In this document: positions 2,092 to 56,616 of the stretch, in pieces
Position numbering within the stretch: the stretch's first letter is position 1
Layout of the letters: each line of letters starts with the position of its first letter
Source: Candidatus Zhuqueibacterota bacterium
GTDB lineage: Bacteria; Zhuqueibacterota; Zhuqueibacteria; Thermofontimicrobiales; Thermofontimicrobiaceae
Direction: 5' to 3'
Length of the DNA: 64,000 nucleotides
Assembly (NCBI GenBank): GCA_049322915.1
Contig: JBMOPW010000003.1
Span: 21,801 to 85,800, forward strand
The notes under the pieces: model-generated
What the model was told of the DNA's origin: nothing
Seen by the model: only the letters and a program-made list of their open reading frames with translations
Database searches by the model: none
Program-made: the position numbers and the translations under genes

Positions 2092-2129
2092 AAAAACCTC
2101 CGTTTGTATTGAGTTAAACATAAAAAAAA

Positions 2130-2159
2130 TGAATATATGAGAGTCGCTTCATATATTCA
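2130..2159. promoter_or_regulatory. Perfect 11-bp inverted repeat (tgaatatatga-N8-tcatatattca) about 40 bp upstream of the BNR gene start; candidate operator or 5' stem-loop
   Basis: Arms are exact reverse complements, read directly from sequence. Confidence 0.3.
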
Positions 2160-2652
2160 GGTCAAAGTTTAGCTACATAATTAGACAGATAAATGATTTT
2201 TGATAACCGTGATTCACGTTTTGATTTGTCTGAGAGTGGAAGTCATTAAATTTATGTTGAAAAGGAAGCATTAATAATATAAAAATATTATTCATTATGT
2301 CAAGAAGTATTTTTAATCAGGAACAGGCTTACACCAAAAGTGGACGCTCATACGTCGGATAAAATAGGCAATTTGAGCATGAAAGGGAAGCTCTGCCCCG
2401 GTGTGCATCAATGTCGGCGATAGATTGTATCAGAATTCGATGCGTGATCCGATCTCCTTTTGTCCGTCCGCCGATGTCATTAAGTGCAGCTGTACCAGCG
2501 ACGTTTTCGAGCGCCAGCCTCAGATCAATGCGCGTACCGGTTGTGGGCTCGATTTGTGCGAACACGTGATTGCGCCTGGTGTTGAGTTTAGCATTTAGCC
2601 TGAATTTCTAAGATGAAATGTCAAATGAGCGTACAGCATATTATTTTAGTAT

Positions 2653-2681
2653 GGAGTGAATTGACACAATCAATTCACTCC
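2653..2681. other. 12-bp perfect palindrome (ggagtgaattga-N5-tcaattcactcc) followed by a T-rich run; terminator-like hairpin of unknown role
   Basis: Read directly from sequence. Confidence 0.3.
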
Positions 2682-2997
2682 ATATATTTTTAGAAATTAA
2701 ATAGAGTCTGTCCGAAAACTGCTATTATTGACCTCACCCGAACCCTCTCCGAAAAGGCTTACCCTTACCCATATCTTTTCTAACGCAGAGACCGCAGAGG
2801 TACGCAAAGTTTTGGTATTGAAAAAAAGCTGTTTGCAAATTTATGAAACCATGTATTTTCCTGGTTATTCTGGTCTTCTGTGACTATGGGTGAACATGAT
2901 TTTCAATGTTTGATTGAAAATTTTAAAATCACTCTGGCCAATTCAACGCGGATCTTTTCTCTGCGCCCTTCGCGACCTCTGCGTTTCATTTGATGTG

Positions 2998-3105
2998 TTA
3001 ACCCTACTACGTCACATAGATTTTTTATCGTTGTATATTGTATTTTTGATAGATGAAAAACTCAACATAGTGTGATAAATTTACTAAATGACGTTGTAGG
3101 GTTAA
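2998..3105 (+). mobile_element. MITE family B copy 1 (108 bp, 17-bp terminal inverted repeats ttaaccctac[t/a]acgtca)
   Basis: 107/108 identical to the reverse complement of 40419-40526; ends are mutual reverse complements; no ORF. Confidence 0.7.
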
Positions 3106-3248
3106 TATCCCCCAACTTATGGGCAAGGGTAAGCCCAAAAGGCGAGGGAGAACAGATGGTCCCCTTCTTGCCCGCAGGGTAAGAAGGGGTTTTGGGGATG
3201 AGCTCTGACGTAGTGAAGTTTGAAAATATCACCCCCATAGCTAATTCA

Positions 3249-3410
3249 GCCTGCATTATTCATAGTATTTTTAGAGGAGGCTGGCTAACCTGAATGGTGC
3301 TCTTTTTAGAATAAACGTATAAAAACTGAGTTTCAAAATAGCTTAGCCTTTAGCTAATTGAAAATCTCAATGTTGACTCAAATTCTGAGCAAGTTCATGA
3401 ATAATTCAGG
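3249..3410 (-). mobile_element. MITE family A copy 1 (about 160 bp, terminal inverted repeat gcctg[a/c]attattcat), inverted relative to the other two copies
   Basis: Near-full-length reverse-complement match to 53139-53298 with a few mismatches; TIRs present. Confidence 0.7.
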
Positions 3411-3494
3411 TTAGGTGTTTTCGGACAGACTCTATTGAGCTAAACTTGATTATAAAAATCCATTTTAAAAATTTAGGTTTAGTAAAAAATAAAC

Positions 3495-4880
3495 TTATCT
3501 TCGTGCCGAATTGGCTACAGCGGCGAACATCTCTTTTGTGAACGCCACTTCTTTTTTGTGGTCAACAAGGCATGCCGGGTAGTCGGACAGCCCTTTCCCC
3601 GACTCCAGGCCGTGAATGGTCGCCGGGGTAAAATCTGACAATTCAGAGACCCATTTTCGAATGTAGCGGCATTCCCCGTCAAATTTTTTTTGCTGATTCC
3701 AGGGATTGAAAATGCGGAAATAGGGCTGAGCGTCGCAGCCAATGGATGCTGCCCATTGCCAGTTTCCGTTGTTGACGCAAGGATCATAATCCAGCAGGTG
3801 ACGCGCAAAATAGGCCTCGCCCCAGCGCCAGTCAATGCGCAAATCCTTCACCAGAAAGGACGCGACAATCATGCGCAGGCGATTGTGCATGAATCCGGTT
3901 TCATTCAACTCGCGCATGCCGGCATCCACAATGGGATAGCCGGTTTGCCCCTGACACCACGCCTGGAATTTATCAGCGTTGTTTTCCCAGACCAGCCCGT
4001 CGTATTTTCGTTTGAACGCATGCCCGAAGACATGGGGGAAGAAGTACCCGATCAGCGTGAAAAAATCCCGCCAGTAAAATTGCCTGATGAGCGGATGGTG
4101 TTCGCCCAACTGCTGAAAGACGCTGTAGTAGGCTTCCCGGATGGAACAGGCGCCAAATTTGAAATGCACTGAAAGTCGTGTGGTGGCGTCCAGTTCAGGC
4201 ACATCGCGCTCTGTCTCATACTGCCGGAACCGCTCAAGGCCGGATAGAATTTCCATTGCGCGGGATCGCCCTGCCGGAACCGAAGCAAGCTCGCTGTCCG
4301 GGGGTAAAACTTTCCCGAATATTTCGTCGTGAGACTGTCCCGGGCGCTTTGCTGATAAATTGGTAGGCACAGAAGAATTGGGCAACGGCACGGCCAGTTT
4401 CGAGGCATGATTGAAAAATGGCGTGAAGACTGTGTACGGGAAACCATCTTTTTTTAACGCAGCGCCGGGATCTGTCAGCAACGCATCGTGCAAGCCGATG
4501 AAAGGGGTATTTAACTTTTCACAGGCGGCGTTCAACTGCGCGTCGCGCTGCCGGCTGAATGGGGTGTAATCGTGATTGAAAAACACGGCATCGATGGCAT
4601 GCCCGGCCAGAATCTGCTCCAGCACACGGGCCGGGTCGCCGAAGAACAGAGATAAGCCACTGTCCATGTGAGTCAATTGAACATGAAGGTCTTGCAGCGC
4701 TTTCACCATGAAAAGCAGGCCCGGTCTGCTCCGATAGGGATGCGGTTCAACCTGTCGCGGATCAAAAATAAAACAGGGAATCACTTCCCGCGATCGCAGG
4801 AGCGCCTCGCGCAACCCGGAATTGTCTTCGAGCCGGAGGTCGCGTCGGAAAATAAACAGGGAGGTGTTGAATTTTTTCAT
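3495..4880 (-). CDS. phr: Deoxyribodipyrimidine photolyase / cryptochrome family protein
   Basis: 461-aa ORF; N-terminus FIFRRDLRLEDNSGL and C-terminal FAD-binding region (WRWGEAYFARHLLDYDPCVNNGNWQWAAS) typical of the photolyase family; ATG with GGAG upstream. Confidence 0.9.
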   Translation of the reverse strand: MKKFNTSLFIFRRDLRLEDNSGLREALLRSREVIPCFIFDPRQVEPHPYRSRPGLLFMVKALQDLHVQLTHMDSGLSLFFGDPARVLEQILAGHAIDAVFFNHDYTPFSRQRDAQLNAACEKLNTPFIGLHDALLTDPGAALKKDGFPYTVFTPFFNHASKLAVPLPNSSVPTNLSAKRPGQSHDEIFGKVLPPDSELASVPAGRSRAMEILSGLERFRQYETERDVPELDATTRLSVHFKFGACSIREAYYSVFQQLGEHHPLIRQFYWRDFFTLIGYFFPHVFGHAFKRKYDGLVWENNADKFQAWCQGQTGYPIVDAGMRELNETGFMHNRLRMIVASFLVKDLRIDWRWGEAYFARHLLDYDPCVNNGNWQWAASIGCDAQPYFRIFNPWNQQKKFDGECRYIRKWVSELSDFTPATIHGLESGKGLSDYPACLVDHKKEVAFTKEMFAAVANSARR

Positions 4881-5248: not shown

Positions 5249-6373
5249 TCAAAACGCCATGCGCACCTGATAGACATTATCTTTCGAAAGGATGGCGGCT
5301 GCATTTTTCTCGATGGTCAATGGAAATATCAGGTCCGGCGTGCCTGCGCCGAAATTCAATGTATCAGCGGGCATTCGGGATAAATTGGTCACCAGACAGC
5401 CGGTGTCAGGATCAAAAGGTCGCAAGTCTTGAAATTCCCTGTTTTGTATGACCGCTTCAATCCTCTCCAAAAAGAACAGATAGCTCTCTCTGGTGATGGT
5501 CGGCCTGGCTTCGCGGATGGCAATGGCCAATTCTGCCACGGTTGCCGTCTCAACCGTCTGTTTCCTGAATGTGGCTGTGTGAAACATGATGCCGTTGCCC
5601 AAAAATTTTGGCCCATAGTGCGGAATCTGTTTTCTCACATCGATGGGCATGGTGAGCGAAACCCTGTCTGAAAAGTGTCCGGCTCGAACCTGTACGGCTT
5701 TTTTCAGGAAAACGGCTGAGAGAAAATCATTGGCGGAAATTTGTTGGCCGGCGTCAGCATTGATGGCATGCACCGCGTTACGCACTTCCTCTCCGGGAAT
5801 TTCCTGGCACTGAACTGTCGCATCATTTTGTGATGGAGGAGTTGGCAAATTCGTTTCCGGGAAATGAAATTTTTTGAGAATCGTACGGTGATAATTCGGC
5901 TTATAAAATGGGCGGATGAGATGCACCTTCAGCGGCATCAAATGGCTGCGGGACAGTGCTGCCCAGGTGGCCAGAAAATAAAAATAGCTGTAGCCGTCCC
6001 CGGCGAGGTGGCGCAACGAAGGGATGATAACCGTGCCATTGGTGAATTGGATGACCGTCACCCGAAACAATCGCGTCATAGCCGAGGAATGGATGTCTTT
6101 GTACTCATTCAAAATTGTTTCAATGGCAGCGCTGGCATCGAATGCTTCCGGGACGATCCTCTCTTCGAAGCAGGCAGCTTCCTCAAATTCAGCGCTGTGG
6201 ATTTTGCCAGCCTGATATGTTCCGAACAATGGCCAGAAGTCCGCTGCGACTTTCGCCAGAGCGGACAGGACTCGCTTCGTTGGGATTGTGTTTTTGAAGT
6301 ACAATAAAAACTCAATGGTATAGCTGCCGTTTGCAAAGACAGCATCGACCTGAGAAATAGATAGCGATTTCAT
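5249..6373 (-). CDS. HxxxD-motif acyltransferase (condensation/CAT-like superfamily)
   Basis: 374-aa ORF with SLRHLAGDGYS matching the HxxxDG catalytic motif of CAT/condensation/BAHD-type acyltransferases; ATG start. Confidence 0.55.
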   Translation of the reverse strand: MKSLSISQVDAVFANGSYTIEFLLYFKNTIPTKRVLSALAKVAADFWPLFGTYQAGKIHSAEFEEAACFEERIVPEAFDASAAIETILNEYKDIHSSAMTRLFRVTVIQFTNGTVIIPSLRHLAGDGYSYFYFLATWAALSRSHLMPLKVHLIRPFYKPNYHRTILKKFHFPETNLPTPPSQNDATVQCQEIPGEEVRNAVHAINADAGQQISANDFLSAVFLKKAVQVRAGHFSDRVSLTMPIDVRKQIPHYGPKFLGNGIMFHTATFRKQTVETATVAELAIAIREARPTITRESYLFFLERIEAVIQNREFQDLRPFDPDTGCLVTNLSRMPADTLNFGAGTPDLIFPLTIEKNAAAILSKDNVYQVRMAF

Positions 6374-6642
6374 CTCTCTTTCAAATTTTGTTTGGAGTCC
6401 ATGCGGCGCGCACCTGGCGAGCCGTCAATGACTGTAATAAGAAAAATGCAAGCCCTGCGTTGTGTCCGTGATTCATCTTTATCAGAAAAAGCGTACGAGC
6501 CATGCCATGAATATCCAGTGATTGCCGATGAAAAAGATGATCCGACAGCGTCATTCCTGGCGCAGGAGGAACAAAGCCCCGGATACTGGCATTTGTCCGG
6601 ATGGGTTGCGTCCTTCAAGTTGCAACGGGTGCAATTTAACAT
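6370..6642 (-). CDS. Small Cys-rich hypothetical protein (90 aa), translationally coupled to the acyltransferase
   Basis: ATG at 6642-6640; stop TGA overlaps the acyltransferase ATG (ATGA on minus strand at 6373-6370); motif NCTRC...CQYPGLCSSC; no SD seen, so real expression is uncertain. Confidence 0.35.
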   Translation of the reverse strand: MLNCTRCNLKDATHPDKCQYPGLCSSCARNDAVGSSFSSAITGYSWHGSYAFSDKDESRTQRRACIFLITVIDGSPGARRMDSKQNLKER

Positions 6643-6912
6643 AAATTTATTTTTGAAGCAAGAAGATTATTGCCAGAATTTGGATGCATCTTTCCGCCAG
6701 CCGGGATGTGTGACTTGATTTACGGCTCCCCTTCTCCGCAGCGCAATGGCCGGAGAGACCCAAAGGCCGAATCATCGCGAGGGATCATTCCGGTCGACCT
6801 GTTGAGCGCGGATTTTCCCGGGTCGAAAAGCTCCTGCAGCGGACACAGTCGGATTGTTCGCGCACACTGCGTCCGGGATTTTCAGGACGAACGAACGGAT
6901 TGTGTTCTGTTT

Positions 6913-7275
6913 TTATTTGAAAGAGTCCCTGTTGCGAAAGAGGATGAGCGAATAGACGCCAATGCCAATCCACACGGCATTGACAAACGCTGAAGGGAGG
7001 GCGTGGTAATAGCCGGCATTCAAAACCAGAAACGAGCTCCCGACAATGTTCATCACCTGGTACAGGGTGGATGTCGCTTCGATCCGCTTTGACGAGACCA
7101 GAAAATAGGCGGCCAGCAGCAGCACTGCGCCAAGCCAGCCGAGAATATCAATGAGAAGTTTGAGGTGCAATATCAATTTCCAATTTTGGGATTTAAAAAT
7201 TCTGTCACTGACGGCATGTGATCCGCGAAGCGGCAGGTATCGGCGCAGCCACACGGAGAGCGAATCCCGGATCAA
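6913..7275 (-). CDS. Small hypothetical membrane protein; start uncertain (TTG in track)
   Basis: C-terminal two-thirds strongly hydrophobic (LGWLGAVLLLAAYFLV...NAVWIGIGVYSLILF); true start may be internal. Confidence 0.4.
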   Translation of the reverse strand: MIRDSLSVWLRRYLPLRGSHAVSDRIFKSQNWKLILHLKLLIDILGWLGAVLLLAAYFLVSSKRIEATSTLYQVMNIVGSSFLVLNAGYYHALPSAFVNAVWIGIGVYSLILFRNRDSFK

Positions 7276-7468
7276 CGTTCGTCTTCAAATTTCGGGGAAT
7301 CATCGGCAACGGCGATGCGTCTCAAGGTTATCTACATTTGGGAAGAACTCCATTCCGGGCATGGATCAATTCGAACGCTGCGCCCAGTGAAAGGAAGAAC
7401 CACGCGCTGTTCAGGTCGTGCTGTCGCTGACTTACTTATTTTCATCAGAACTATGGCCGGGTGCGTTG

Positions 7469-10180
7469 TTAATTTGCATGGGAGTCATGGACTCCAATTT
7501 TTTTTCGAAGTTCAATCGCTGCAAAGATGATGACGCCAATTCCGACGGCAATCCCCAAATCCATGAGCGACAACGGAGTGGTTTTAAAGAACGCCTGCAT
7601 CGGACCAAGGTACATCACCAGCAGTTGCAGCCCGGCCACCACAATCACCAGCACCATCATCAGCGGATTGGAGCGCAACCCAATGGTGAAGAGAGAAGCA
7701 TGGCTCGAACGGGCGGCGAGCGCCTGGCCGATCTGGGCAAACGCCAGAGAAGTGAAGACCATCGTTTGCCACGTGGCGCGACCATTGAAATAATACAGGG
7801 CCCCGACGATCAAAACAAGCGCACCGATGAGAGCGCCAATCCAGGCGGTCTGCTTGCCGGCGCCCCGGCTGAAAACTCCCTCCCGCGGTGAGTAGGGCGG
7901 CCGTCGCATAGTATCTTTTTCAGCGGGTTCGACGCACATGCCGAGTCCCAGCAAGCCGTCCGTGAGCAGGTTCAACCATAAAAGCTGAAGTGGCAGAAGT
8001 GGGATGGGCTTGCCCAGAAACGGCGCGAGCACCATGACCAGCACTTTGCCGATGTTGCCGGCGACAGAGAACTGCACGAATTTTCGAATATTGTCGTAGA
8101 TAGTGCGGCCTTCCTGCACGGCCTCCACAATCGTAGCGAAGTTGTCATCGAGCACCACCAGATCCGAGGCCTCTTTGGCCACATCCGTCCCGGTGATGCC
8201 CATGGCCACACCAATATCGGCCTGACGCAGGGCCGGCGCATCATTGACCCCGTCGCCGGTCATGGAAACAATGTCCCCGTTTTCCTGGAACGCCTGAATG
8301 ATGCGAAGCTTATGCTCCGGAGCCACGCGCGCGAAGATATTCACATCGCTCAGTTCTTTGCGCAATTCATCGTCACTGAGTTTTTCGAGATCAGCGCCGG
8401 TCAGCGCCCGACCGTTGTCGGAAATTCCCAGTTGCCGTGCGATTTCGACCGCGGTCAGCGGGTGATCGCCGGTGATCATTACCGTGCGGATCCCGGCGGT
8501 TTTCGTGAGGCGCACCGCATCGCGCACCTCCGGCCGGGGTGGGTCGATCATTCCGAACAGCCCGACAAAGATGAGGTCGCTTTCTTCGTCAGTGCCCGGG
8601 CTATCAGGGAGCCGACTCAGGGTCCGATAGGCCACACCCAGGACGCGCATTCCTTTTCGCGCAAAGCCTTCATTGGTATCCAAAATACGCTTCCGCCACG
8701 TGTCGTTCATGGTTTCAATTTGATCACCTGTCTGAACGCGGTTGGCAATATTCAACAAACCATCGGCGCTGCCTTTGGTGAAAGCGATGTAATGATCGCG
8801 ATGAACATTCACGCCGACCAGATTTTGGAGCCGATCGTGATTCAATTGGTGAATGGTAGTCATCCGCTTGCGCGAAGAGTCGAAAGGCAATTCAGCGATT
8901 CGGGGGAATTCGGCGTCGAGCGATGATTTCCAGTAGCCCATCTGAGCCGCAGCAGCCACCAGCGCGCCCTCGGTGGGGTCGCCGATCGTGTGGTAACTGG
9001 AGTCATTTTTCTCTATCAGACGGGCATCGTTGCAAAGCGCGCCGCCCAACACCAGCAATGAGAGAGGCGACTGGACCGGAATGCCCTGGCTGCGGGAAGT
9101 TTGAACCGAATCGCCTTTCATTTCTTCGGTCAGGTCCAATTCATGGCCGGCGACGTCCAACACGACGACGGTCATTCTGTTCTCCGTCAGCGTGCCTGTT
9201 TTGTCGGAGCAGATGACAGTGACAGAGCCCAGGGTTTCGACGGCCGGCAGTTTGCGGATCAGCGCATTGCGATGCAGCATGCGTTGCGCGCCCAATGCCA
9301 GCGTAATGGTGACGACTGCCGGCAGGCCTTCCGGCACAATGGCAACAGCGACCGAGACGGCCGTCAGCAGCATGTGCTGAATTTGGTCGCCGCGCCAAAT
9401 TCCCAGGATAAAAACAAACGCAGCGATGGCGGCTCCCACGCCAGCCAGCATTTTGCCCAATTGATCGAGACGCCGCTGAAGGGGCGTCTGCTCTTTGCCA
9501 GCCTGCTGAATGAGATTGGCGATTTTCCCCAATTCGGTCTGCATGCCGGTGGCCACCACGAGCGCGCGGCCGCGTCCCTGAGTGACCACGGTGCCCATGT
9601 AGCCCAGATTGCGACGATCGCCAAGGGGAAGGCCATTGCCAATCATCACCTGGGTCTGCTTTTCAACCGGTTCGGACTCCCCGGTCAGCGTGGCTTCCTG
9701 AATTCTGAGATTCACTGCCTCGATCAATCGAACATCGGCCGGGACGACGTTGCCGGTTTCGAGTTGTAACACGTCGCCGGGGACGAGTTCGCGCGCGGAG
9801 ATTTCCAGCAGTGCGCCGTCCCGAGTCACCCTCACTGTGGGCGTGGACATGCGTTTGAGTGAAGCGATCGCTTTTTCAGCCCGATATTCCTGAATGAATC
9901 CGAGAATCGAATACAGCACGACAATGGCGAAAATGGCGATGGCATTTTTAGAATCACCGAGAATAGTGGCGGCGACAGCCGCGGCGATGAGAATCAGCAC
10001 CATAGTGGCCGTGAGTTGTTCCCAGAGAATCCCGAGCGGAGTTCGGCCGCCTTTTTCAATGAGTTCGTTATGACCAAGTTGTGCCAGGCGGGATTGCGCC
10101 TCAGCGGCGCTCAGGCCATTGCGCTCGTGCGAATGTAGTTCGTGGATTGCGTGTCCGATTTCAGTGAGATGCCAATTCAT
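7469..10180 (-). CDS. Cation-transporting P-type ATPase (P2-type, Ca2+/Mg2+-like)
   Basis: 903-aa ORF with phosphorylation motif DKTGTLT and hinge motif [11 protein letters not shown]; N-terminal cation-ATPase region; ATG with GGAG upstream. Confidence 0.9.
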
Positions 10181-10333
10181 TGTGACTCCGGATTTTGTGA
10201 GAATTATCGTGGTCGCTTATATCAGTAACAGGTTGAGGGAGAAAGCGCCCGCGGCTATAGCCCGGGTTCTCTTCGCCAAATCGACTCACCACTCTGAACA
10301 GCGCGCTATTCAGATTATAGCCGAGACAGAAAA

Positions 10334-12220
10334 TCATTTTATGACTGTCAGTTTATACCACTGAGCACCCCTGCAAGTTTCGATGCGATACAGGTAAACG
10401 CCGGAAGCGACAGATTGACCTGCGTTATTTTGCCCGTTCCAGAGCACGCGGTTCCAGCCGGGATTCGCGATGAGATTGGGCCAGGATTTTATCAGTTGGC
10501 CCAGCGGATTGAAAATCTGCACGTTTGCCGGGCCCGGTCGTTCAGCATAAAACTGAATGGTCGTGGCGTTGTTGAGCGGATTGGGATAGTTGAAGCTGGT
10601 CTCATATTTTTCAGGCAAGGCATCAGGAACAATTTCCACGGCCGTTGAATTGGGCAACCATTCCATCAGTTTTTCCCGCTCCATCTCGCCGCCGCTGGAG
10701 CTATTGGCGACATTGTACGTCCACCACATCCCGGTGACGCCGCCGCCGCTGATGGTGGTTGAAAACGCCTGGTTGGACATGGCGCCGAAATAACGCGCCT
10801 GGTTGCCGGGATATTCTTTATCATCCCAGGTGCAGTCAATCGGAACCCATCCGTAATTGGGAAAATAGACCTGCTGCCAGCGATGAAAGATGCGGTCTTC
10901 GTACGGGAGGTCGTCGCGAAGATGCCCGCCAGCTTCCATTCGCGCCGGGATGCCGGCGGCGCGGCACAGCGCCACAAACAAAAACGTGTATTCAGAACAG
11001 GAGCCGGTGCCGCGGCTGAGCACTATCGGAGCGGTGTCCCAACTGCTGTCGTTGATGTATTCGATGTGCGAAATCACGTAATCGTGGATATTGCGCACCT
11101 GCCAGTACAGATTGCTTTCATCGCCAATGGCCTCTTGCGCTGCATTACGAATGACAGGATGGGTTATGTCGTAATACTCGCCGTCCGGCGTGTACATGGT
11201 GATGATGGATTGCGGAATGTCCGTCAATTCGCCAACACTGTCAGGGTGAAGGAAATAGCGGATGTTGTACAGCGTGGCCGGCACAGACCACTGGTACAAT
11301 TTTTCTTCGCCCGCCGGAACGGACTCTTCGTAATAGGCAATTTGTTGACCGAAGTAGTCAGTATAAAAAGTGTGCGGTTCATCCCTGAACTGAAGCGTAT
11401 CTTCCAATTGCTGGTAGACGGCTTCGAACGGGCAGGCTAAGTAGGTCTGCAAATTCATCACGCTGGAGCCGACATTTTTGATGGTGACAGTGTACCTGAT
11501 TTTCACCAGAAATGGATCGGTGATTTGATATTTTTCTGTTCCGGCGATGGAGATTTTATAAATCCGGTCGTGCTCGTAATCGGCATTCCAGAGGAAATGG
11601 CCGTCGAAAGCCAGTCCGTAGGAATAGGTACCCGGCGCATTCAGGATAGTGAAAATCCTGCCGCGATCTGTTTCCAGCCGGTAGATTTCATCTTTATCGT
11701 AATCCGCGCACCATAGATATTCGCCGTCCCAGGCTAATCCGCGATTGTAGCCGCCGGGCGAAATGAGCGTGTCGGCGTAGCTGCCGGTTTCCGGGTTTAG
11801 TTTGAAGATGCGCTTCGCCTGGCTGTCCACGTACCAGAGAAACTCGCCGTCCCAAGTTAGCCCGCGGGGATTTTCGGTTCCCACCGGAACAATTTTGGTG
11901 ATGGAACTATCTTCGACGTCGATTTGGCAGAGCTGGTCGTGCCCGTTATCCGAGCACCAGAGGAACTGGCCGTCCCAGGCCAGGCCGTTTATCGTGGCGT
12001 TTGCCGGGCTGGGCAGGGAATAGAGTACCTGTCCGGTCTGCGGATCGATCTTGTAAATTTGGTTTGTGCCAATATCCGCATTCCACAAAAATTCGCCGTC
12101 CCAGGCTAACCCGGTGGGGCGACTCCCGGGCGAAGGGAAAAAATCCAGGACAGCACCCATCTGGGCGTGACCAGTTGAAAAGAGAAAAAGAATAATCCCG
12201 ATGAGCTTCATTGGTTTCAT
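10334..12220 (-). CDS. Secreted beta-propeller repeat / transglutaminase-like cysteine protease-fold protein with T9SS C-terminal sorting domain
   Basis: Signal peptide; 5-6 repeats of GLAWDG(E/Q)FLW; transglutaminase-like core GSCSEYTFLFVALCRAAGIPAR with downstream H and D (HRWQQVYFPNYGWVPID); C-terminus NYPNPLNNATTIQF...GVYLYRI. Confidence 0.75.
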   Translation of the reverse strand: MKPMKLIGIILFLFSTGHAQMGAVLDFFPSPGSRPTGLAWDGEFLWNADIGTNQIYKIDPQTGQVLYSLPSPANATINGLAWDGQFLWCSDNGHDQLCQIDVEDSSITKIVPVGTENPRGLTWDGEFLWYVDSQAKRIFKLNPETGSYADTLISPGGYNRGLAWDGEYLWCADYDKDEIYRLETDRGRIFTILNAPGTYSYGLAFDGHFLWNADYEHDRIYKISIAGTEKYQITDPFLVKIRYTVTIKNVGSSVMNLQTYLACPFEAVYQQLEDTLQFRDEPHTFYTDYFGQQIAYYEESVPAGEEKLYQWSVPATLYNIRYFLHPDSVGELTDIPQSIITMYTPDGEYYDITHPVIRNAAQEAIGDESNLYWQVRNIHDYVISHIEYINDSSWDTAPIVLSRGTGSCSEYTFLFVALCRAAGIPARMEAGGHLRDDLPYEDRIFHRWQQVYFPNYGWVPIDCTWDDKEYPGNQARYFGAMSNQAFSTTISGGGVTGMWWTYNVANSSSGGEMEREKLMEWLPNSTAVEIVPDALPEKYETSFNYPNPLNNATTIQFYAERPGPANVQIFNPLGQLIKSWPNLIANPGWNRVLWNGQNNAGQSVASGVYLYRIETCRGAQWYKLTVIK

Positions 12221-12504
12221 GGTGATATCTCAGTTTTAAGCCCACGGAACACACGAAAGAGCACGAAAAAATTGACATCAATGGGTTCAATTTAAAAAGG
12301 GGCTAAAGTCCAAAATAACGGAAGAATTCTATTCCCCGACTTAAAAGTCGGGGCTATTCAAATTGTCCAACATTTAAATATTCAATAGAATAGCCACGTC
12401 ATTTATGACATGGAAGCCTTTTAATGCTTTTTAAAGTAGACGCGTAAATCTTCAGCGTTCTTTCGCGTGTTCAGCGGGCAATAATTTTGACTTTAAATTA
12501 AAAT

Positions 12505-12553
12505 CGCCAATTACACACGGTGTGAAAAAGGCTTTGTGCAATTGGCGAATGCG
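12505..12553 (-). terminator. Candidate intrinsic terminator downstream of the BNR T9SS gene
   Basis: Stem cgccaatt(12505-12512)/aattggcg(12540-12547) with structured interior, followed on the minus strand by an A/T-rich tract. Confidence 0.35.
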
Positions 12554-16015: not shown

Positions 16016-17629
16016 TCATTCGAGCGGTGACCATTCACCGTATTGTTCGATGTAAATGCGACATTTATCTTTGGATGTCCATCGATTATTGAAGTTGTAT
16101 GTCCAGTCGAGATAATCGGAGCCCCCGCCGCCAGTGGTAGTAATGATATAGCGGCAGGCGATATTGCCAATGCCGGCTGCCTGTTCGCCGGGTCTGGCTT
16201 TGTCGCCTTTGTTGGCGTCGAAGGGGATCCAGCCGTAATTTGGCAGATACACCTCGCACCATCGATGATAGACTTCGTCGAGGCTGGCGTCGTCGCCCCG
16301 TTGCGATACAGCGCCGACATAACGGGCAGGAAGCCCTGCGGCGCGGCACAGCGCGATGAATGAAAATGAATATTCGGAACAGGATGCCGTGCCTCGTTTC
16401 AAGACGGTCGTTGCAGTGTTCCACCCGCCGACTGGCTTTAAATTGTACGTGAGATTTTCGATGAGATAATTAAAAATCTTCCGCGCCATCCAGTAGGGAT
16501 TCTGCTCGTCCCCAACGATTTTTTTTGCCAGGTTCTGAATGAAGGGTTCGTGGACGTTGAGTTTCTTTCCATCAGCAAGATACGTTTTCAATATTTCAAC
16601 CGGCACACTTTCGAGTGCGCCCACTTTAACCGGATCAATGAAATATTCGGCCGCCCAGATCGTGGCATCAATGGTCATCGTCGCCCGAAAAAATTCCCCG
16701 CTTTTAAGATTTTTCACATTGAAATAAGCGACCTTTTGGCCCCATTGGTCAGTCAGGATTTTTTCCGGTTCAGGGACAAATGTGACGGGGCGAGACAGTT
16801 GCTGGTTATCCCTGTTTTCCGGGATGGCGAGATACACATCTGCCGAGATGACGGTGCCTGGTCCGTAATTTCTGAAATCGATGGTATTCTCCAGCCGTTG
16901 TTTCTTGGGGGACAACTTTGTCAGAAACACCGGATCATCGATTTTTATCCTATAAATTTTGTCCGCTTGATAATCCACATTCCAGAGAAAAGCGCCATCC
17001 CAGGCGAGTCCGCGGGCGTATTGGTCCGGTGCGTGAATGGACCCGATGACCATGCCGCTGTTCCGATCCATGCGATAAATAGCATTCTCGCCCCGATCGG
17101 CGATCCACAAACAGTGCCCGTCAAAAGCCAATCCGTCAGGATCGTCGGCTGGCGATGGGAAATTGTGAATCATCATGCCGTCCTCAGGGTCAAGACTGAG
17201 CACCAGATCCAGTTTGTCATCGACGACCCAGAGCAATGTACCATCCCAGCAAATGTCTTTGGGATTATCGGTGCAGGCTTCGATCACGCGTTCAGCGATT
17301 CCGGTTTCAATATTCATTCTGTAAAGAAATCGCTCCTTATCATCCATCGCCCAGAGATGCGTGCCATCCCAGGCCAAACCCGTCGGACTGAAACCGGGCG
17401 CGGGAAAAGTGTGAATGACGAGGCCATTATTCGGATCGATCTGATACAGATTATCAGTTTTTCGGTCAGCAACCCAGAGGTATTTTCCGTCAAACGCAAG
17501 CCCCGTCGGATGGTCTCCGGGTGAATTCATTGTGTATACGATTTCACCAACAAAAGCAAAACTCACCTGTGAGCAAAGGCTCATCCAACTGAGGAAGCCA
17601 AGCATAAACCATATTCTCAAGGTTTTCAT
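16016..17629 (-). CDS. Beta-propeller repeat / transglutaminase-like protein, paralogue of 10334-12220 lacking the T9SS C-terminal domain
   Basis: 537-aa ORF; signal peptide; GLAFDGKYLW/GLAWDGTHLW repeats; core GTASCSEYSFSFIALCRAAGLPAR plus HRWCEVYLPNYGWIPFD; GAGGAG RBS. Confidence 0.75.
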   Translation of the reverse strand: MKTLRIWFMLGFLSWMSLCSQVSFAFVGEIVYTMNSPGDHPTGLAFDGKYLWVADRKTDNLYQIDPNNGLVIHTFPAPGFSPTGLAWDGTHLWAMDDKERFLYRMNIETGIAERVIEACTDNPKDICWDGTLLWVVDDKLDLVLSLDPEDGMMIHNFPSPADDPDGLAFDGHCLWIADRGENAIYRMDRNSGMVIGSIHAPDQYARGLAWDGAFLWNVDYQADKIYRIKIDDPVFLTKLSPKKQRLENTIDFRNYGPGTVISADVYLAIPENRDNQQLSRPVTFVPEPEKILTDQWGQKVAYFNVKNLKSGEFFRATMTIDATIWAAEYFIDPVKVGALESVPVEILKTYLADGKKLNVHEPFIQNLAKKIVGDEQNPYWMARKIFNYLIENLTYNLKPVGGWNTATTVLKRGTASCSEYSFSFIALCRAAGLPARYVGAVSQRGDDASLDEVYHRWCEVYLPNYGWIPFDANKGDKARPGEQAAGIGNIACRYIITTTGGGGSDYLDWTYNFNNRWTSKDKCRIYIEQYGEWSPLE

Positions 17630-40418: not shown

Positions 40419-40526
40419 TTAACCCTACAACGTCATTTAGTAAATTTATCACAATATGTTGAGTTTTTCATCTATCAAAAATACAATATACAACGATAAA
40501 AAATCTATGTGACGTAGTAGGGTTAA
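40419..40526 (-). mobile_element. MITE family B copy 2 (108 bp), inverted relative to copy 1, 18 bp upstream of the rtcB ATG
   Basis: Reverse complement of 2998-3105 with a single mismatch. Confidence 0.7.
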
Positions 40527-51054: not shown

Positions 51055-52419
51055 TTACTCTAATTTCGCAATGACATTTTCCAGCGTGGTTGTCGTCTGC
51101 TCCCCTGAAATCATGTTTTTCAGCATGACCTCATTTCTCGCCACTTCATCCGGCCCGAGAATGATGACGTAAGGGATTCCCTTTTTATCCGCATATTTGA
51201 ACTGCTTTTTCAGTCCGCCGGTCTCGAAAAAAACTTCAGTATTGATGCCTGCGTCGCGCAGCCGCCGGGTAATTTGCAGGCTCAGCTTTTTCGTGTCCTC
51301 GTCGAACATGGTCACCAAAACCTGGGTGGTCGTTTTGGTCTCCGGCAGCATATTCAGCTCGGTCATCACGTCTATGATGCGCTCGATGCCGATGGTGGTT
51401 CCTGTGGCCGGGATATTCCTTCCCAAAAACATGCCGACCAGTTCGTCGTACCGGCCGCCGCCGGTGAGACTGCCAATTTTTGGCCTTTCCACCACGGATT
51501 CGTAGATCGGGCCGGTGTAATAATTCAGCCCGCGCGCCAGGTACAGATCCAGCGTGTAATTATCTTCGGACACGCCCAGATCGTGAATGAGCGGAATCAA
51601 CTCTTCGAGTTCCAGAACGCCGGCCATGCCGATCTCCGAAACTTGCAGCAATTGGGTGATGTCGGAGAGAATCGTGTCCATTTCCCCGCTAATTTCCAAT
51701 ATGGGCAAAATCTTATCGATGCTCGGCTGAGGGATTTCCCGTTTCACAAGCTCTTCTTTCACACCATCCAGCCCGATTTTCTCCAGCTTGTCGATGGCGA
51801 TGCACACCTCCGTTCCCCGATCTGCCTGGACCCCGGCATATTCGACAATGCCGGAAAGGACTTTCCGATTGTTGATCCGGATTTTAAATTGCTCAAAGCC
51901 CAATGTCGACAGGATTTCATTGATGAGCGAAATGATCTCCGCATCGGCCATCATGGATGCGCTGCCTACGGTGTCGGCGTCGCACTGAAAGAATTCCCGG
52001 TAGCGGCCTTTTTGCGGTCGCTCGGCGCGCCATACCGGCTGGATCTGGTAGCGCTTGAACGGCAGGGTGATTTCGTTCTGATACATGGCAATGACGCGGC
52101 TGAGAGGCACAGTCAAATCGTAGCGCAGCGCATAATCGACGATGTCTTTGTAATCCCGAAATGTGAACTCGCTGATCTCCCGACCCACCTTCTCAATGTC
52201 CGTGCCCCGTTTCAGAATTTTGAAAATGAGTTGGTCGCCTTCATCGCCGTATTTGCCGGACAGAACCTCCAATTTCTCAATCGCCGGCGTTTCCAGCGGT
52301 TCATAGCCATGCTTCTCGAAAACGCGCTGAATGGTCTCCATCACCAATCTCCGCTTCAGCATTTTCTCCGGCAAAATATCGCGCATGCCTCTCGGCGTGC
52401 TCGGTTTGATAATTTCCAT
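51055..52419 (-). CDS. hisS: Histidine--tRNA ligase
   Basis: Class II aaRS motifs; N-terminus MEIIKPSTPRGMRDILPEKMLKRRLVMETIQRVFEKHGYEPLETP; start taken at ATG 52419 (GGAG RBS), though the track ORF starts with GTG at 52434. Confidence 0.9.
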   Translation of the reverse strand: MEIIKPSTPRGMRDILPEKMLKRRLVMETIQRVFEKHGYEPLETPAIEKLEVLSGKYGDEGDQLIFKILKRGTDIEKVGREISEFTFRDYKDIVDYALRYDLTVPLSRVIAMYQNEITLPFKRYQIQPVWRAERPQKGRYREFFQCDADTVGSASMMADAEIISLINEILSTLGFEQFKIRINNRKVLSGIVEYAGVQADRGTEVCIAIDKLEKIGLDGVKEELVKREIPQPSIDKILPILEISGEMDTILSDITQLLQVSEIGMAGVLELEELIPLIHDLGVSEDNYTLDLYLARGLNYYTGPIYESVVERPKIGSLTGGGRYDELVGMFLGRNIPATGTTIGIERIIDVMTELNMLPETKTTTQVLVTMFDEDTKKLSLQITRRLRDAGINTEVFFETGGLKKQFKYADKKGIPYVIILGPDEVARNEVMLKNMISGEQTTTTLENVIAKLE

Positions 52420-52879
52420 ACCTGATGTCTCCACAGTTGATTTTCAATCGCGAAAAAACCCCATCATCCACTGACAACAGGGTGTGGCGCTGCGTTTTTC
52501 AGCCAACACCGTGACTCATGACTGCGTCCCATCGACTCGGGCGTCTCCATAATTCCGCCCATCAATCGGTTTTTTTGCTGGTTAAAGTAAATATTTTTTT
52601 CTTATGATGCAAGAGATTTTTCCGGCAGGTTCCCCTTCTTTCAAAACCATGTTGCGGGAACATCAGCGCGCCGTCAGTGAAGCGCCCGTTGTCCCGGCTG
52701 CTGACCGGACATTCACCCGATACCTTCGGAAAAGTTATCAGGAATTTCATCTTCTCACAAATCCGGTCTTGCTTTTTTCAAGAAAATTATTATCTTATTT
52801 GGTGCGTTTTTCAAATGCGCAATCCCGAAGCTCCGTACGAGCTGCGAAGATAGTCACCCTCAATCCAGGGAGCTATTCC

Positions 52880-53602
52880 ATGAGAGCAACTATCCTTTTC
52901 CTGACGGTCGCCATCTTGCTGGCCGGTGCTCTGTCAACTTCGAACGGACAGGAAGCAGGGGAGATGAAGCGATCGGACTATGGCGTCTTCAGCTTCTGGC
53001 AGAGCGTGACGCTGCCCGGCGCGCCGGGGATCATCTACGATGCCATCACCGGGGATATCAGCGGATGGTGGGATCACACCTTCTCCGGAAAGCCGGCGCG
53101 TTTTTTCATCGAGCCCAAACCCGGCGGCGGCTTCTATCCTGAATTATTCATGAACTTGCTCAGAATTTGAGTCAACATTCAGATTTTCAATTAGCTAAAA
53201 GCTAAGCTATTTTGAAACTAAGTTTTTGTACGTTTATTCTAAAAAGAGCACCATTCAGGTTAGCCAGCCTCCTTTAAAAATACTATGAATAATGCAGGCT
53301 ATGAAATTTTTGATGAAAGCGGCGATGGCGTGTTACACGCCACGGTCATTTATGCCCAGCGCGGCAAACTGCTGCGGTTCGAGGGCCCGCTCGGCCTTTC
53401 CGGCAGAGCCGTGACGCTCGTGTGCAGCTATTCTTTCGCTGCGGTCGGCGCCGATTCCACAAAACTGATATTGGACGTCCATATAGCCGGTGAAATCGAT
53501 GCCGCCACAGCGCAGATCGTGAAAAGCGTCTGGCATCATTTCATCATCGAACAATTTAAACCCTACATCGAATTGGGCAAGCACCTGAAGAAAAAGGACT
53601 GA
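52880..53602 (+). pseudogene. Secreted SRPBCC (AHSA1/CalC-like) protein gene interrupted in-frame by a MITE insertion
   Basis: ORF 52880-53170 (MRATILFLTVAILLAGAL... IIYDAITGDISGWWDH ... KPGGGFY) and ORF 53285-53602 (EIFDESGDGVLHATVIYAQRGKLLRFEGPLG...) share one frame; removing 53139-53300 joins them into a single SRPBCC-like reading frame. Confidence 0.7.
53139..53298 (+). mobile_element. MITE family A copy 2, flanked by TA dinucleotides (candidate target-site duplication)
   Basis: TIR tcctgaattattcat / atgaataatgcaggc; TA at 53137-53138 and 53299-53300; matches 3249-3410 (inverted) and 56464-56616. Confidence 0.7.
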
Positions 53603-53605
53603 GTC

Positions 53606-56299
53606 ATGGTAAAGAAGCAGGTTCATGTCATCTCCCACACCCATTGGGATCGCGAATGGTACATGACGTTTCAGCAGTATCGTCTGAAACTGGTCGACCT
53701 CATCGACACCCTCCTCGATCTGCTGGAGAAAAATTCCGACTATCGCTATTTTCATCTGGACGGTCAGACGGTTGTGCTGGACGATTATTTTGAAATTCGG
53801 CCGGAGAACAGGCCGCGACTGGAAAGCCTTGTGCGGCAGGGGCGCGTTTTAATCGGTCCCTGGTATGTCCTGTGCGACGAATTCCTGGTCAGCGGCGAAT
53901 CCATTGTTCGTAATTTGCTATTGGGACATGCCATGGCCGGCGCCCTGGGAAAGGTCATGAAAGTCGGGTATGTCATCGATGCCTTCGGGCATATTTCGCA
54001 GATGCCCCAGATTTTTGCCAACTTCGAAATCGACAATGCCATCATGTGGCGCGGCGTGGGCGGCCCGGATTTCAAATCTGAATTTTACTGGCGTTCCCCG
54101 GATGGCTCCACTGTCCTCACTTACAAGGTGCAGGATGTGGGCGGCTATTGTTACGGCGTGTTTCTACCTTCAGAACCGGAGGCGTTGCAGCAGCGACTTG
54201 CCGCCATTTTGCAGGAGCGGCAGCGCCACGCCACCACCGACCATCTCGTGGTGATGAACGGCTGCGACCATATCGAACCCCAGCCCAATTTGCCGGCCAT
54301 CATCGAATTGGCCAACCAGATCGAACCGGACGCGAATATTTTTCACAGCACCATTCCGGAGCTGTTCGCCCGCCTGAAAGAGGACGTGAAAGGAATTCCC
54401 ATGTTGAAAGGCGAGCTGCGGGACAATCAGCATGTCAATCTCCTGGCTGGCACGATTTCCTCGCGCATGTATTTGAAAAAAGCGAACAACGACTCCCAGA
54501 CGCTGTTGGAGCGATTTGTCGAGCCGCTCGCCGCAATTGCCTGGACGCTGAGCGGCCGCTATCCTCAGGCGCAAATCTGGCAGTCATGGAAATATCTCAT
54601 GCAAAATCAACCTCACGACGACATCTGCGGTTGCAGCGTGGATGCGGTCCACGAACAGATGCAGACGCGATTTGCCTGGTCCCGGGAAATTGCCCATGAT
54701 CTCATCGACCGCAGTTTCTACACCATTTTTAATACGCCGGATCTGAACGCGCTTGATGCCCGGCAGGCGGATATCATCCTGTTCAACCCGTTAGGCTGGA
54801 AGCGGAGTGAAGTGGTGACCGGCCGCGCAGATTTCCCGGCCGACACGGAAATCTTCTCCATCGCTGTATCGTCTGCCGATGCAGCAACTGTTCCCTGTCA
54901 GGTGGAGAGCATCCGCGTCGTCGAAAAATTGCAGGTCGACCCGCGTTTCGGGCCGATGTCGGTGATGGTGAAGCAGGTGACTTTCTCTTTTCTGGCTGAA
55001 AATATTCCATCGTGCGGGTATAAATTGTACCATGTCATTCCGGCGGCGGACCTGGCCGAACCAGCCACGGATCTGGTCGTTGAAAATTTCTCCGCGGAAA
55101 ATACATTCCTCAAAATACGATTCCGCCCGGAGGGGACATTTGATGTGCTCAATAAAACGACGTCCCAGACCTATTCCAATTGCAATCTGTTCGAAGATGG
55201 TGGCGACAGCGGGGATGAGTACACCTATTCGTTTCCGATGAAAGATCGGCTCATTTATGGATTTGAAACACCGCCGCAAATTTCCATCGAGCAGCAGGGG
55301 CCGGTGAAGGCTGTCTTCATGATCAAGGGAAATTTGAAACTGCCGGAGTCGCTCAATCCGGATTTTCAGTCCCGAAGCGATGCAGAAGTTACCTGCCCGG
55401 TCATCAGTCGAGTCGCGATCCATTCCAAAACCCGATACATACAAATTTCCACGGAGATCGATAATCGCGCAAAAGATCACCGGCTGCGGGTCCTGTTTCC
55501 CAGCCAGATTCGCGCGGAATTCTCATTCGCCGGCGGCAACTTCGATGTGATCAGCCGGAAAATTGCGCTGCCGCCCAGGAAGGGGTGGATGGAAGACCCC
55601 ATTCCCACGCATCCATTCCAGCATTTTGTTTCCATCAACGACGCCGGCCGCGGTCTGACCATTGCCAGCCCGGATGTGACGGAGTTCGAGGTGAAGCGGA
55701 CGCCGGAAAGTCCCATAGCCCTCACTCTGTTGCGCTGCGTTGGGTCTCTGGCCAGGTTCGATCTCATGACGCGCAAAGGCCGGGATGGCTGGCGTTTCAA
55801 AACGCCCGGCGGGCAATGCCCCGGCGTCCATCAATTTTCATACGCCATCATTCCCCATGCCGGCAACTGGCTCAGCGACGAAAGCCACACCCTGGCGTTC
55901 AACAACTCCACGCCGATGCTCACGAAACAGATTCGGAAGAAGCCGGAGCAATTGCCGGAGACTGGGGCCTTTCTCACTGTTCAGCCGGCGGAACTGGTGC
56001 TGTCCTGCCTGAAACGCAGCGAACACAACGATGCCATCATCATTCGCATGTACAATATTTCCAACCGGGATGTGGCCGGACGAATACACTTCTTCCAGCG
56101 GATTTCCACCGCGCGAATCGTGACCATGGCCGAAGAGCCGGTGAGCCATGGGGAACTGGTGATTGACAACAACCACACCCTGTCGGTGAATTTCCCGGGA
56201 AACAAAATTTTGACAATTGAGCTGTTCATTGCTGAAACCGAATTGCGCAAGGAAGAGTTTTTCCCGCCCATTCATAAAATTATGGAGATGCAGGGATAG
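53606..56299 (+). CDS. Glycoside hydrolase family 38 alpha-mannosidase-like protein
   Basis: 897-aa ORF; N-terminal GH38 signature VHVISHTHWDREW; AAGGA RBS. Confidence 0.9.
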   Translation: MVKKQVHVISHTHWDREWYMTFQQYRLKLVDLIDTLLDLLEKNSDYRYFHLDGQTVVLDDYFEIRPENRPRLESLVRQGRVLIGPWYVLCDEFLVSGESIVRNLLLGHAMAGALGKVMKVGYVIDAFGHISQMPQIFANFEIDNAIMWRGVGGPDFKSEFYWRSPDGSTVLTYKVQDVGGYCYGVFLPSEPEALQQRLAAILQERQRHATTDHLVVMNGCDHIEPQPNLPAIIELANQIEPDANIFHSTIPELFARLKEDVKGIPMLKGELRDNQHVNLLAGTISSRMYLKKANNDSQTLLERFVEPLAAIAWTLSGRYPQAQIWQSWKYLMQNQPHDDICGCSVDAVHEQMQTRFAWSREIAHDLIDRSFYTIFNTPDLNALDARQADIILFNPLGWKRSEVVTGRADFPADTEIFSIAVSSADAATVPCQVESIRVVEKLQVDPRFGPMSVMVKQVTFSFLAENIPSCGYKLYHVIPAADLAEPATDLVVENFSAENTFLKIRFRPEGTFDVLNKTTSQTYSNCNLFEDGGDSGDEYTYSFPMKDRLIYGFETPPQISIEQQGPVKAVFMIKGNLKLPESLNPDFQSRSDAEVTCPVISRVAIHSKTRYIQISTEIDNRAKDHRLRVLFPSQIRAEFSFAGGNFDVISRKIALPPRKGWMEDPIPTHPFQHFVSINDAGRGLTIASPDVTEFEVKRTPESPIALTLLRCVGSLARFDLMTRKGRDGWRFKTPGGQCPGVHQFSYAIIPHAGNWLSDESHTLAFNNSTPMLTKQIRKKPEQLPETGAFLTVQPAELVLSCLKRSEHNDAIIIRMYNISNRDVAGRIHFFQRISTARIVTMAEEPVSHGELVIDNNHTLSVNFPGNKILTIELFIAETELRKEEFFPPIHKIMEMQG

Positions 56300-56463
56300 C
56301 TCCGCGTTTTGACCTGTTGAACCGGTGATCCGTATCGTGTCTGTGGCTGTTTTGGCCTGATTTTTTAATCTCAAATAAAGCAATAGAAATTTGAAGAATT
56401 ACCACCAGGACTCGAAGTCGCTACGTATCACTAATGAAAACAGAAGCTGTTTAGCCTGAATTA

Positions 56464-56616
56464 TTCATGAATTCTCCAATAGGCCAACTTAACATTATGT
56501 TTTCATAATGTGTGAATGTATATGCAAAATCAAACTCAGTTTTATATTCAAATTTTAAATTTATGCACCATTCAGGTTATCCCGCTTCCTTTAAAAATAC
56601 AATGAATAATGCGGGT
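56464..56616 (+). mobile_element. MITE family A copy 3 (diverged interior), about 140 bp upstream of the ABC ATPase gene
   Basis: Both termini match copy 2 (gcctgaattattcatgaa ... caccattcaggtta.cc.gc.tcctttaaaaatac.atgaataatgc.gg); TA flanks at 56462-56463 and 56617-56618. Confidence 0.55.

Follow-up and report, generated by a model that had tools for sequence, protein, structure and literature searches.

A MITE with a 4-bp target-site duplication very probably splits a leader-bearing SRPBCC gene in Candidatus Zhuqueibacterota

In a genome of Candidatus Zhuqueibacterota (FCB group), a MITE has very probably inserted at the sequence CTAT into a single leader-bearing SRPBCC gene of 185 codons, splitting it in two. 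The locus lies in a 64,000-nucleotide stretch of DNA, analysed as a whole and referred to here as the window; its features are collected in Table 1. Ordinary insertional gene disruption is a known type of event, and the MITE family responsible is apparently undescribed. The case is chiefly of value for annotation and touches no open biological question: the NCBI record lists the two open reading frames (ORFs) at the locus as separate hypothetical proteins (ACOY90_01615 and ACOY90_01620), which together represent one disrupted SRPBCC gene and are due a pseudogene label. A first reading of this DNA, made from the letters alone (the sequence-only reading), had placed the ORFs 52880-53170 (96 aa) and 53285-53602 (105 aa) in the same frame and regarded them as halves of one SRPBCC-type protein. 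Both statements hold, the first on inspection of the frame and the second on the evidence of homologues and of the fold of a close relative. The inserted element, e53, sits between the native parts of these two ORFs.

Table 1. Coordinates of the disrupted SRPBCC gene, the inserted MITE, its copies in the window and the neighbouring GH38 gene (positions are those of the window).
Feature	Position	Strand	Remark
5' part of SRPBCC gene	52880..53137	+	codons 1-86: leader, first strand, helix, to the middle of strand 84-88
Left target-site copy CTAT	53134..53137	+	single CTAT in L050
MITE copy e53	53138..53298	+	161 bp, no open frame
5' terminal inverted repeat	53138..53151	+	CCTGAATTATTCAT
TGA ending first ORF	53168..53170	+	within e53
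Sigma-70-like motif TTGAAA-N17-TATTCT	53212..53240	+	9/12; overlaps central palindrome 53215-53225
3' terminal inverted repeat	53285..53298	+	ATGAATAATGCAGG; ATG 53285-53287 within
Right target-site copy CTAT	53299..53302	+	single CTAT in L050
3' part of SRPBCC gene	53303..53602	+	codons 87-185 and stop
GH38 alpha-mannosidase-type gene	53606..56299	+	3 nt past SRPBCC stop; spacing same in L050
Near-identical copy e3	3250..3410	-	156/161 vs e53; flanks CTAA/CTGA
Diverged copy e56	56455..56615	+	103/161 vs e53; target-site duplication TTAG/TTAG

Removal of positions 53138-53302 restores a protein of 185 aa that aligns along all 185 residues, without a gap and with 81% identity, to P0123 (JGI, 185 aa), a protein found in the 90%-identity cluster of the second ORF. 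The 5' part alone aligns gap-free to residues 1-86 of P0123 and of other homologues, and the restored junction PGGGFY|EIFDESGDG likewise fits the homologue consensus without a gap. Homologues of the restored protein number 1659, and the best 120 of these 1659 are single proteins of 144-204 aa; a look-up of the 96-aa product of the first ORF returned no record. The sequence-only reading had itself named orthologues that are naturally two genes as telling against it; the homologues listed are single genes.

The uninterrupted form of the locus is preserved in L050, the contig that encodes P0123, which was reached via the neighbouring GH38 orthologue. Gene order in L050 is that of the window (Lhr-hisS-SRPBCC-GH38-ABC-IMPase-sigma54 regulator-RhaA-TetR), and the gene at the SRPBCC locus is intact, encoding the 185 aa of P0123; comparison of orthologous loci, a check proposed with the sequence-only reading, thus finds one uninterrupted gene. 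Alignment of the window to L050 at the DNA level opens a single gap of exactly 165 bp (161 + 4): L050 reads ...GGCGGCTT-CTAT-GAAATTTTTGAT..., and the window reads ...GGCGGCTT-CTAT-[161 bp]-CTAT-GAAATTTTTGAT.... No MITE copy is present in L050 at the site of e53 or at that of e56. Two differences elsewhere in L050 were noted: its GH38 orthologue (10001-12523) is without window residues 391-447, a deletion of 57 aa, and the interval from Lhr to hisS holds an additional YARHG-domain gene (6023-7303) that is absent from the window.

It is very improbable that the locus instead comprises two naturally separate genes, or that an assembly artefact joined a repeat into a gene. NCBI does annotate two hypothetical proteins, but the listed homologues are single, and in L050 the nearest orthologue is undivided and has the same neighbours. 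The sequence does come from a metagenome-assembled genome, but a mis-join would not yield exact junctions, a perfect 4-bp duplication and a preserved frame. The right-hand junction is moreover supported by independent reads: a contig of the Logan assembly SRR32167788 has its start 26 nt into e53 and its end in e56. Both of its ends fall in copies of the element, indicating that the repeat breaks short-read assemblies. Part of the cell population may still carry the empty site.

Element e53 has the features of a MITE: it is short and non-coding, has terminal inverted repeats (TIRs) and a target-site duplication demonstrable against an empty site, and belongs to a set of many dispersed copies. 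Its GC content is 32%, against 50% for the window, and each of the six frames checked contains at least three stops, so that coding capacity is nil. The TIR pair CCTGAATTATTCAT / CCTGCATTATTCAT is complementary at 13 of 14 positions, in keeping with the terminal inverted repeats of about 14 bp described earlier, and each TIR carries, 14 nt from its tip, an ATG that reads outward (ATGAATAAT[G/T]CAGG). The repeat itself had been correctly recognized, though as an element of 160 bp at 53139-53298; it starts one position earlier and is 161 bp long. A scan of the whole window against Rfam detected no family. RNA folding gives modest departures from shuffled sequences (z = -2.2 for e53, z = -2.9 for e56), which is no evidence of a structured RNA; the main stem consists of the paired TIRs in e53 only, not in e56.

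Two further copies in the window, formerly placed at 3249-3410 and 56464-56616, are both real, with the corrected limits given in Table 1. Copy e3 differs from e53 at 5 of 161 positions (96.9% identity) and is intergenic, downstream of a photolyase gene. Copy e56, also intergenic, has the GH38 gene on one side and an ABC ATPase gene on the other; it shares with e53 the conserved first 18 nt and last ~50 nt. Recurrence of these ends in the window exceeds expectation from shuffled sequence, both for a 24-nt end probe (2 sites vs 0.00 expected) and for a 15-nt TIR pattern (7 sites vs 0.55 expected). In one metagenome scan, a 3' end probe recovered 20 loci, 14 of which hold complete copies (160-201 bp); with the three copies of the window these form the set of 17 complete copies considered below. 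The TIRs are conserved in all 17, and the family is defined by 14-bp TIRs, CCTG(A/C)ATTATTCAT. When its members are aligned, conservation is seen at the ends, in a 3' subterminal block (CCATTCAGGTTAKCCNGCYTCC...) and in a central palindrome, AAACTnAGTTT (53215-53225 in e53). All other complete copies (16/16) are intergenic, and e53 is the only one whose excision in silico restores an ORF, as would be expected if such insertions were usually selected against.

Family members occur in contigs of 28-45% GC in addition to the 50% GC host, and the family is thus not limited to one genome. It appears to have moved recently within the candidate phylum Zhuqueibacterota and is present also in lower-GC genomes from other metagenomes. 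Searches of other sources were negative. With the 24-nt end probe, species-representative genome contigs yielded a single chance match, within a LacI-type coding sequence from a Treponemataceae MAG, the host evidently not being represented in that set. The first of two scans of viral contigs gave 24 chance matches that lacked a partner end and the second gave none, and blastn of the element against plasmids found no match. A full-text literature search with the terminal sequences located no relevant paper, the sole match being an unrelated paper on coconut SSRs. An apparently undescribed MITE family with CCTG(A/C)ATTATTCAT ends and an NTAN duplication is hereby placed on record.

Two structural peculiarities of the family were observed. 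The 3' subterminal block (53248-53270 and equivalents in all copies) includes a second, inward-facing copy of the tip, in which CCATTCAGG, the reverse complement of CCTGAATGG, is followed by TTAK; this copy may represent an additional site for transposase binding or the remnant of a nested insertion. Relative to the 160-bp form (L005), a 201-bp subfamily (L003, L006, L011-L014, L018-L020 and L022) contains one extra 41-bp block near the 3' end, which has palindromic ends (CATTGTATAG...ATACAATACTATG) and resembles a small nested insertion.

The duplication made by the family is 4 bp long, of the form NTAN. Apart from the empty site, this is evident from the flanks of the 17 complete copies: the 4-bp flanks are identical in 10 (ATAA, TTAA, CTAA, TTAG, GTAA, CTAT) and differ by one mismatch in 6, and the outermost flank base matches in 13 of 17, compared with ~30% by chance. 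The sequence-only reading had proposed a TA duplication of Tc1/IS630 type and a unit of element plus TA amounting to 162 bp; neither survives comparison with the empty site and the 17 sets of flanks, the net insertion being 165 bp. Its conclusion that the frame is preserved stands regardless, 162 and 165 both being multiples of 3. Such a duplication rules out the Tc1/IS630 type and is in keeping with families that duplicate 4 bp. That the element nonetheless belongs to the Tc1/mariner-IS630 group, with TA duplicated and 162 bp inserted, is extremely unlikely. The TA at the centre of nearly every flank is what such an element would show, but alignment to the empty site opens a gap of 165 bp, L050 having only one CTAT, and the frequencies of full 4-bp and outer-base matches argue against it. 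So does the deletion of 53139-53300 suggested with the sequence-only reading, which leaves ...FYHEIF..., with an extra His codon missing from homologues; only the 165-bp deletion (53138-53302) restores the orthologous sequence, ...GGGFY|EIFDE.... The family resembles Tc1/mariner-IS630 MITEs in its short TIRs and in the TA of its target, but differs in duplicating 4 bp rather than TA.

Candidate parents are insertion sequences of the IS5 group and the IS1380 family. Both generate duplications of 4 bp or 4-5 bp; IS5 prefers YTAR targets, and the ends of IS1380 elements start with CC. The present family shares with both the 4-bp duplication with central TA (ATAA, TTAA, CTAA, TTAG, CTAT), with IS5 the YTAR-like targets and with IS1380 the ends that start with CC. 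Against the ends of ISEcp1, CCTAGATTCTACGT and CCTAAATTCCACGT (plasmid pC15-1a), 8-9 of 14 positions agree, a weak resemblance from a comparison chosen post hoc; ISEcp1 makes 5-bp duplications. The likeness to IS1380 and IS5 is a lead on the parent element, not a test. The window, 54 loci, viral contigs and plasmids yielded no transposase gene with these ends. A transposase-like ORF pair in L020 was considered as parent and rejected for having unrelated 25-nt inverted repeats of its own. It forms part of an IS-like unit (911-3629), ~220 nt from a MITE copy, with inverted repeats that are 88% complementary (ATGTATTACCGCCAAATTCAGATAT) and two overlapping ORFs (223 and 602 aa) whose MULE/ISL3/Mutator matches are below threshold. 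Bacterial MITEs such as the Correia elements, the RPEs of Rickettsia and the cyanobacterial Nezha elements are likewise small, AT-rich and non-coding, with TIRs and target-site duplications, and also occur in many, mostly intergenic copies that break short-read assemblies. In the Rfam and plasmid searches and the literature search with the terminal sequences, however, the family shows no relation to a described one, and unlike Rickettsia RPEs, e53 cannot be read through in any frame.

The 3' half of the SRPBCC gene, together with GH38, is bracketed by two MITE copies in direct orientation, e53 and e56 (53138-56615, 3478 bp). A composite transposon that imported GH38 was rejected as an explanation of this arrangement: each copy has its own duplication (CTAT and TTAG), and L050, which is free of the MITE, has GH38 in the identical position. 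In principle, the pair would now be able to mobilize the enclosed GH38 gene.

Assignment of the host protein depends on the structural model of a homologue and on AHSA1 matches in some homologues. The restored frame matches no SRPBCC model at the sequence level, an outcome that the sequence-only reading had named as telling against it, whereas at the fold level the model of a homologue is SRPBCC. Neither the restored protein nor either half matched Pfam (E <= 1) or NCBIfam (E <= 10), and a profile search of PDB sequences returned chance matches only. Among 16 close homologues, six match PF08327 (best E 5.8e-6) and ten are missed by the Pfam model. The AlphaFold model of P0001, a homologue with 64% identity (pLDDT 89.5), served as a stand-in for the restored window protein; it comprises a strand, a helix, six strands and a long C-terminal helix. 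Foldseek comparison of this model with the PDB places 1z94, 3put, 3q64, 1xfs and 1x53 on top (AHSA1/START/Bet v 1; E ~1e-6, probability 1.0), and 233 PDB chains match at E <= 0.001, the best of them AHSA1/START/PR-10 proteins. Modelling on P0001 thereby settles the predicted fold of the host protein as an SRPBCC (AHSA1/START-like) helix-grip fold. Some homologues are named 'SRPBCC domain-containing' or 'YndB with AHSA1/START domain' at NCBI/JGI. The family shares the modelled helix-grip fold with the AHSA1/YndB-like branch of SRPBCC (PF08327), but diverges from that branch and has an N-terminal leader.

The window protein begins with MR, a 16-residue hydrophobic stretch and STS; the P0001 model has a low-confidence helix at 3-19. 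Most homologues have a lipobox-like Cys (SC or AC). In the leader (52880-52960), the window has LLAG where P0123 has a lipobox-like LLAC, and in most homologues the Cys lies a few residues later. On this comparison, the window protein may no longer be lipid-anchored, a loss that would predate the insertion or be independent of it.

The course of events would be as follows. A non-autonomous MITE, mobilized in trans by a transposase presumably of DDE type, would have inserted at CTAT across codons 85 and 86, duplicating these 4 bp. The duplicated bases correspond to the last base of codon 85 and the whole of codon 86, so that the break falls between residues 86 and 87 and, in the P0001 model, inside the β-strand 84-88. 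Translation would now stop ten codons into the element, the first ORF consisting of 86 native residues followed by the element-encoded PELFMNLLRI. With every frame of e53 closed, a protein is cut short wherever the element enters its coding region. An ATG intrinsic to the 3' TIR happens to be in frame with the remainder of the gene, on account of which a gene caller reports two 'hypothetical proteins'; the second ORF starts with MNNAG from the TIR, followed by Y from the duplicated TAT. Both the TGA stop and the ATG start had been attributed to the element, and both lie inside 53138-53298.

The ATG was earlier taken for a new start codon. It is indeed in the element, but it is improbable as a functional start: upstream of it are CCTCCTTTAAAAATACT and CCTCC with no Shine-Dalgarno motif, and its product would be missing the leader and half the fold. 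The native start at 52880 is preceded by GGGAG, and similar motifs stand before many window genes. On the evidence of the P0001 model, neither fragment is predicted to be able to form a helix-grip domain alone, and both are most likely non-functional. With the break inside a β-strand and the second fragment without a leader, the gene is most likely a recent pseudogene. Neither half shows any other lesion. The dN/dS values against L050 are 0.20 for the restored gene, 0.10 for the C-terminal half and 0.09 for GH38. The want of further lesions, the low dN/dS and the near-identity of e53 and e3 suggest that the insertion is young compared with the divergence from the L050 lineage.

The spacing of 3 nt between the SRPBCC stop and GH38, the same in L050, indicates that the two genes are probably co-transcribed. 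Their pairing is not conserved around the distant SRPBCC homologues P0017 and P0003 or the GH38 homologues P0127 and P0128. After insertion, GH38 would still be read from the native upstream promoter, possibly with some polarity from the untranslated stretch; no terminator-like site was found on the + strand of e53.

The sequence-only reading had further assigned e53 a promoter pointing toward the downstream half and GH38. The motif is present as described, but a promoter role is not supported. Promoter-like sites in the 1.4 kb from 52400 to 53800 number three, against 1.2 +/- 0.9 in shuffles, which is not above chance. Conservation of the hexamers does not extend to e56 or to the 163-201-bp subfamilies, and in e3 the same motif is aimed into a gene-less convergent spacer. 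Neither Bacteroidota-type (TAnnTTTG) nor sigma-70-type enrichment upstream of 32 window genes gave a usable signal.

These findings bear on whether e53 has been co-opted, its outward sigma-70-type promoter and new start driving the half-gene and GH38. This is unlikely. It would accord with the downstream aim of the motif, with the outward ATG in both TIRs and with the placement of e56, which has the orientation of e53 and precedes the ABC ATPase gene by 141 nt. Promoter-bearing MITEs are also known elsewhere, the Correia elements of Neisseria being MITEs that carry promoters. Against co-option stand a motif of 9/12 that occurs at chance level, its lack of conservation, its presence in e3 with no gene ahead, an ATG without the Shine-Dalgarno motif that many window genes have, and a C-terminal fragment without the leader and half the fold. 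Read-through to GH38 would also be possible from the native promoter, a terminator-like site being absent. Plain disruption of the SRPBCC gene by the MITE is preferred. It is decidedly unlikely that the family as a whole is built for tolerance inside operons, as a mobile 'restart cassette' with outward ATGs and a promoter-like motif; if it were, insertions into coding regions would restart translation, and possibly transcription, and thus lessen polarity on downstream genes such as GH38.

Other repeats were observed in the window. A second, unrelated MITE of 100 bp occurs at 3002-3101 and 40423-40522 in opposite orientation (99% identity over 109 nt with flanks), with TIRs CCCTAC(T/A)ACGTCA and TTAA on both sides at both sites. 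The copy at 3002-3101 adjoins e3 in the 2140-3495 spacer; that at 40423-40522 separates rtcB from an archease gene and, with its TTAA included, stands 18 nt before the rtcB start. Repeats with a period of 123 nt (41 codons) at 11558-12113 and 16952-17374 fall within the long minus-strand ORFs 10334-12220 and 16016-17629 and presumably encode the repeat units of a propeller-type domain.
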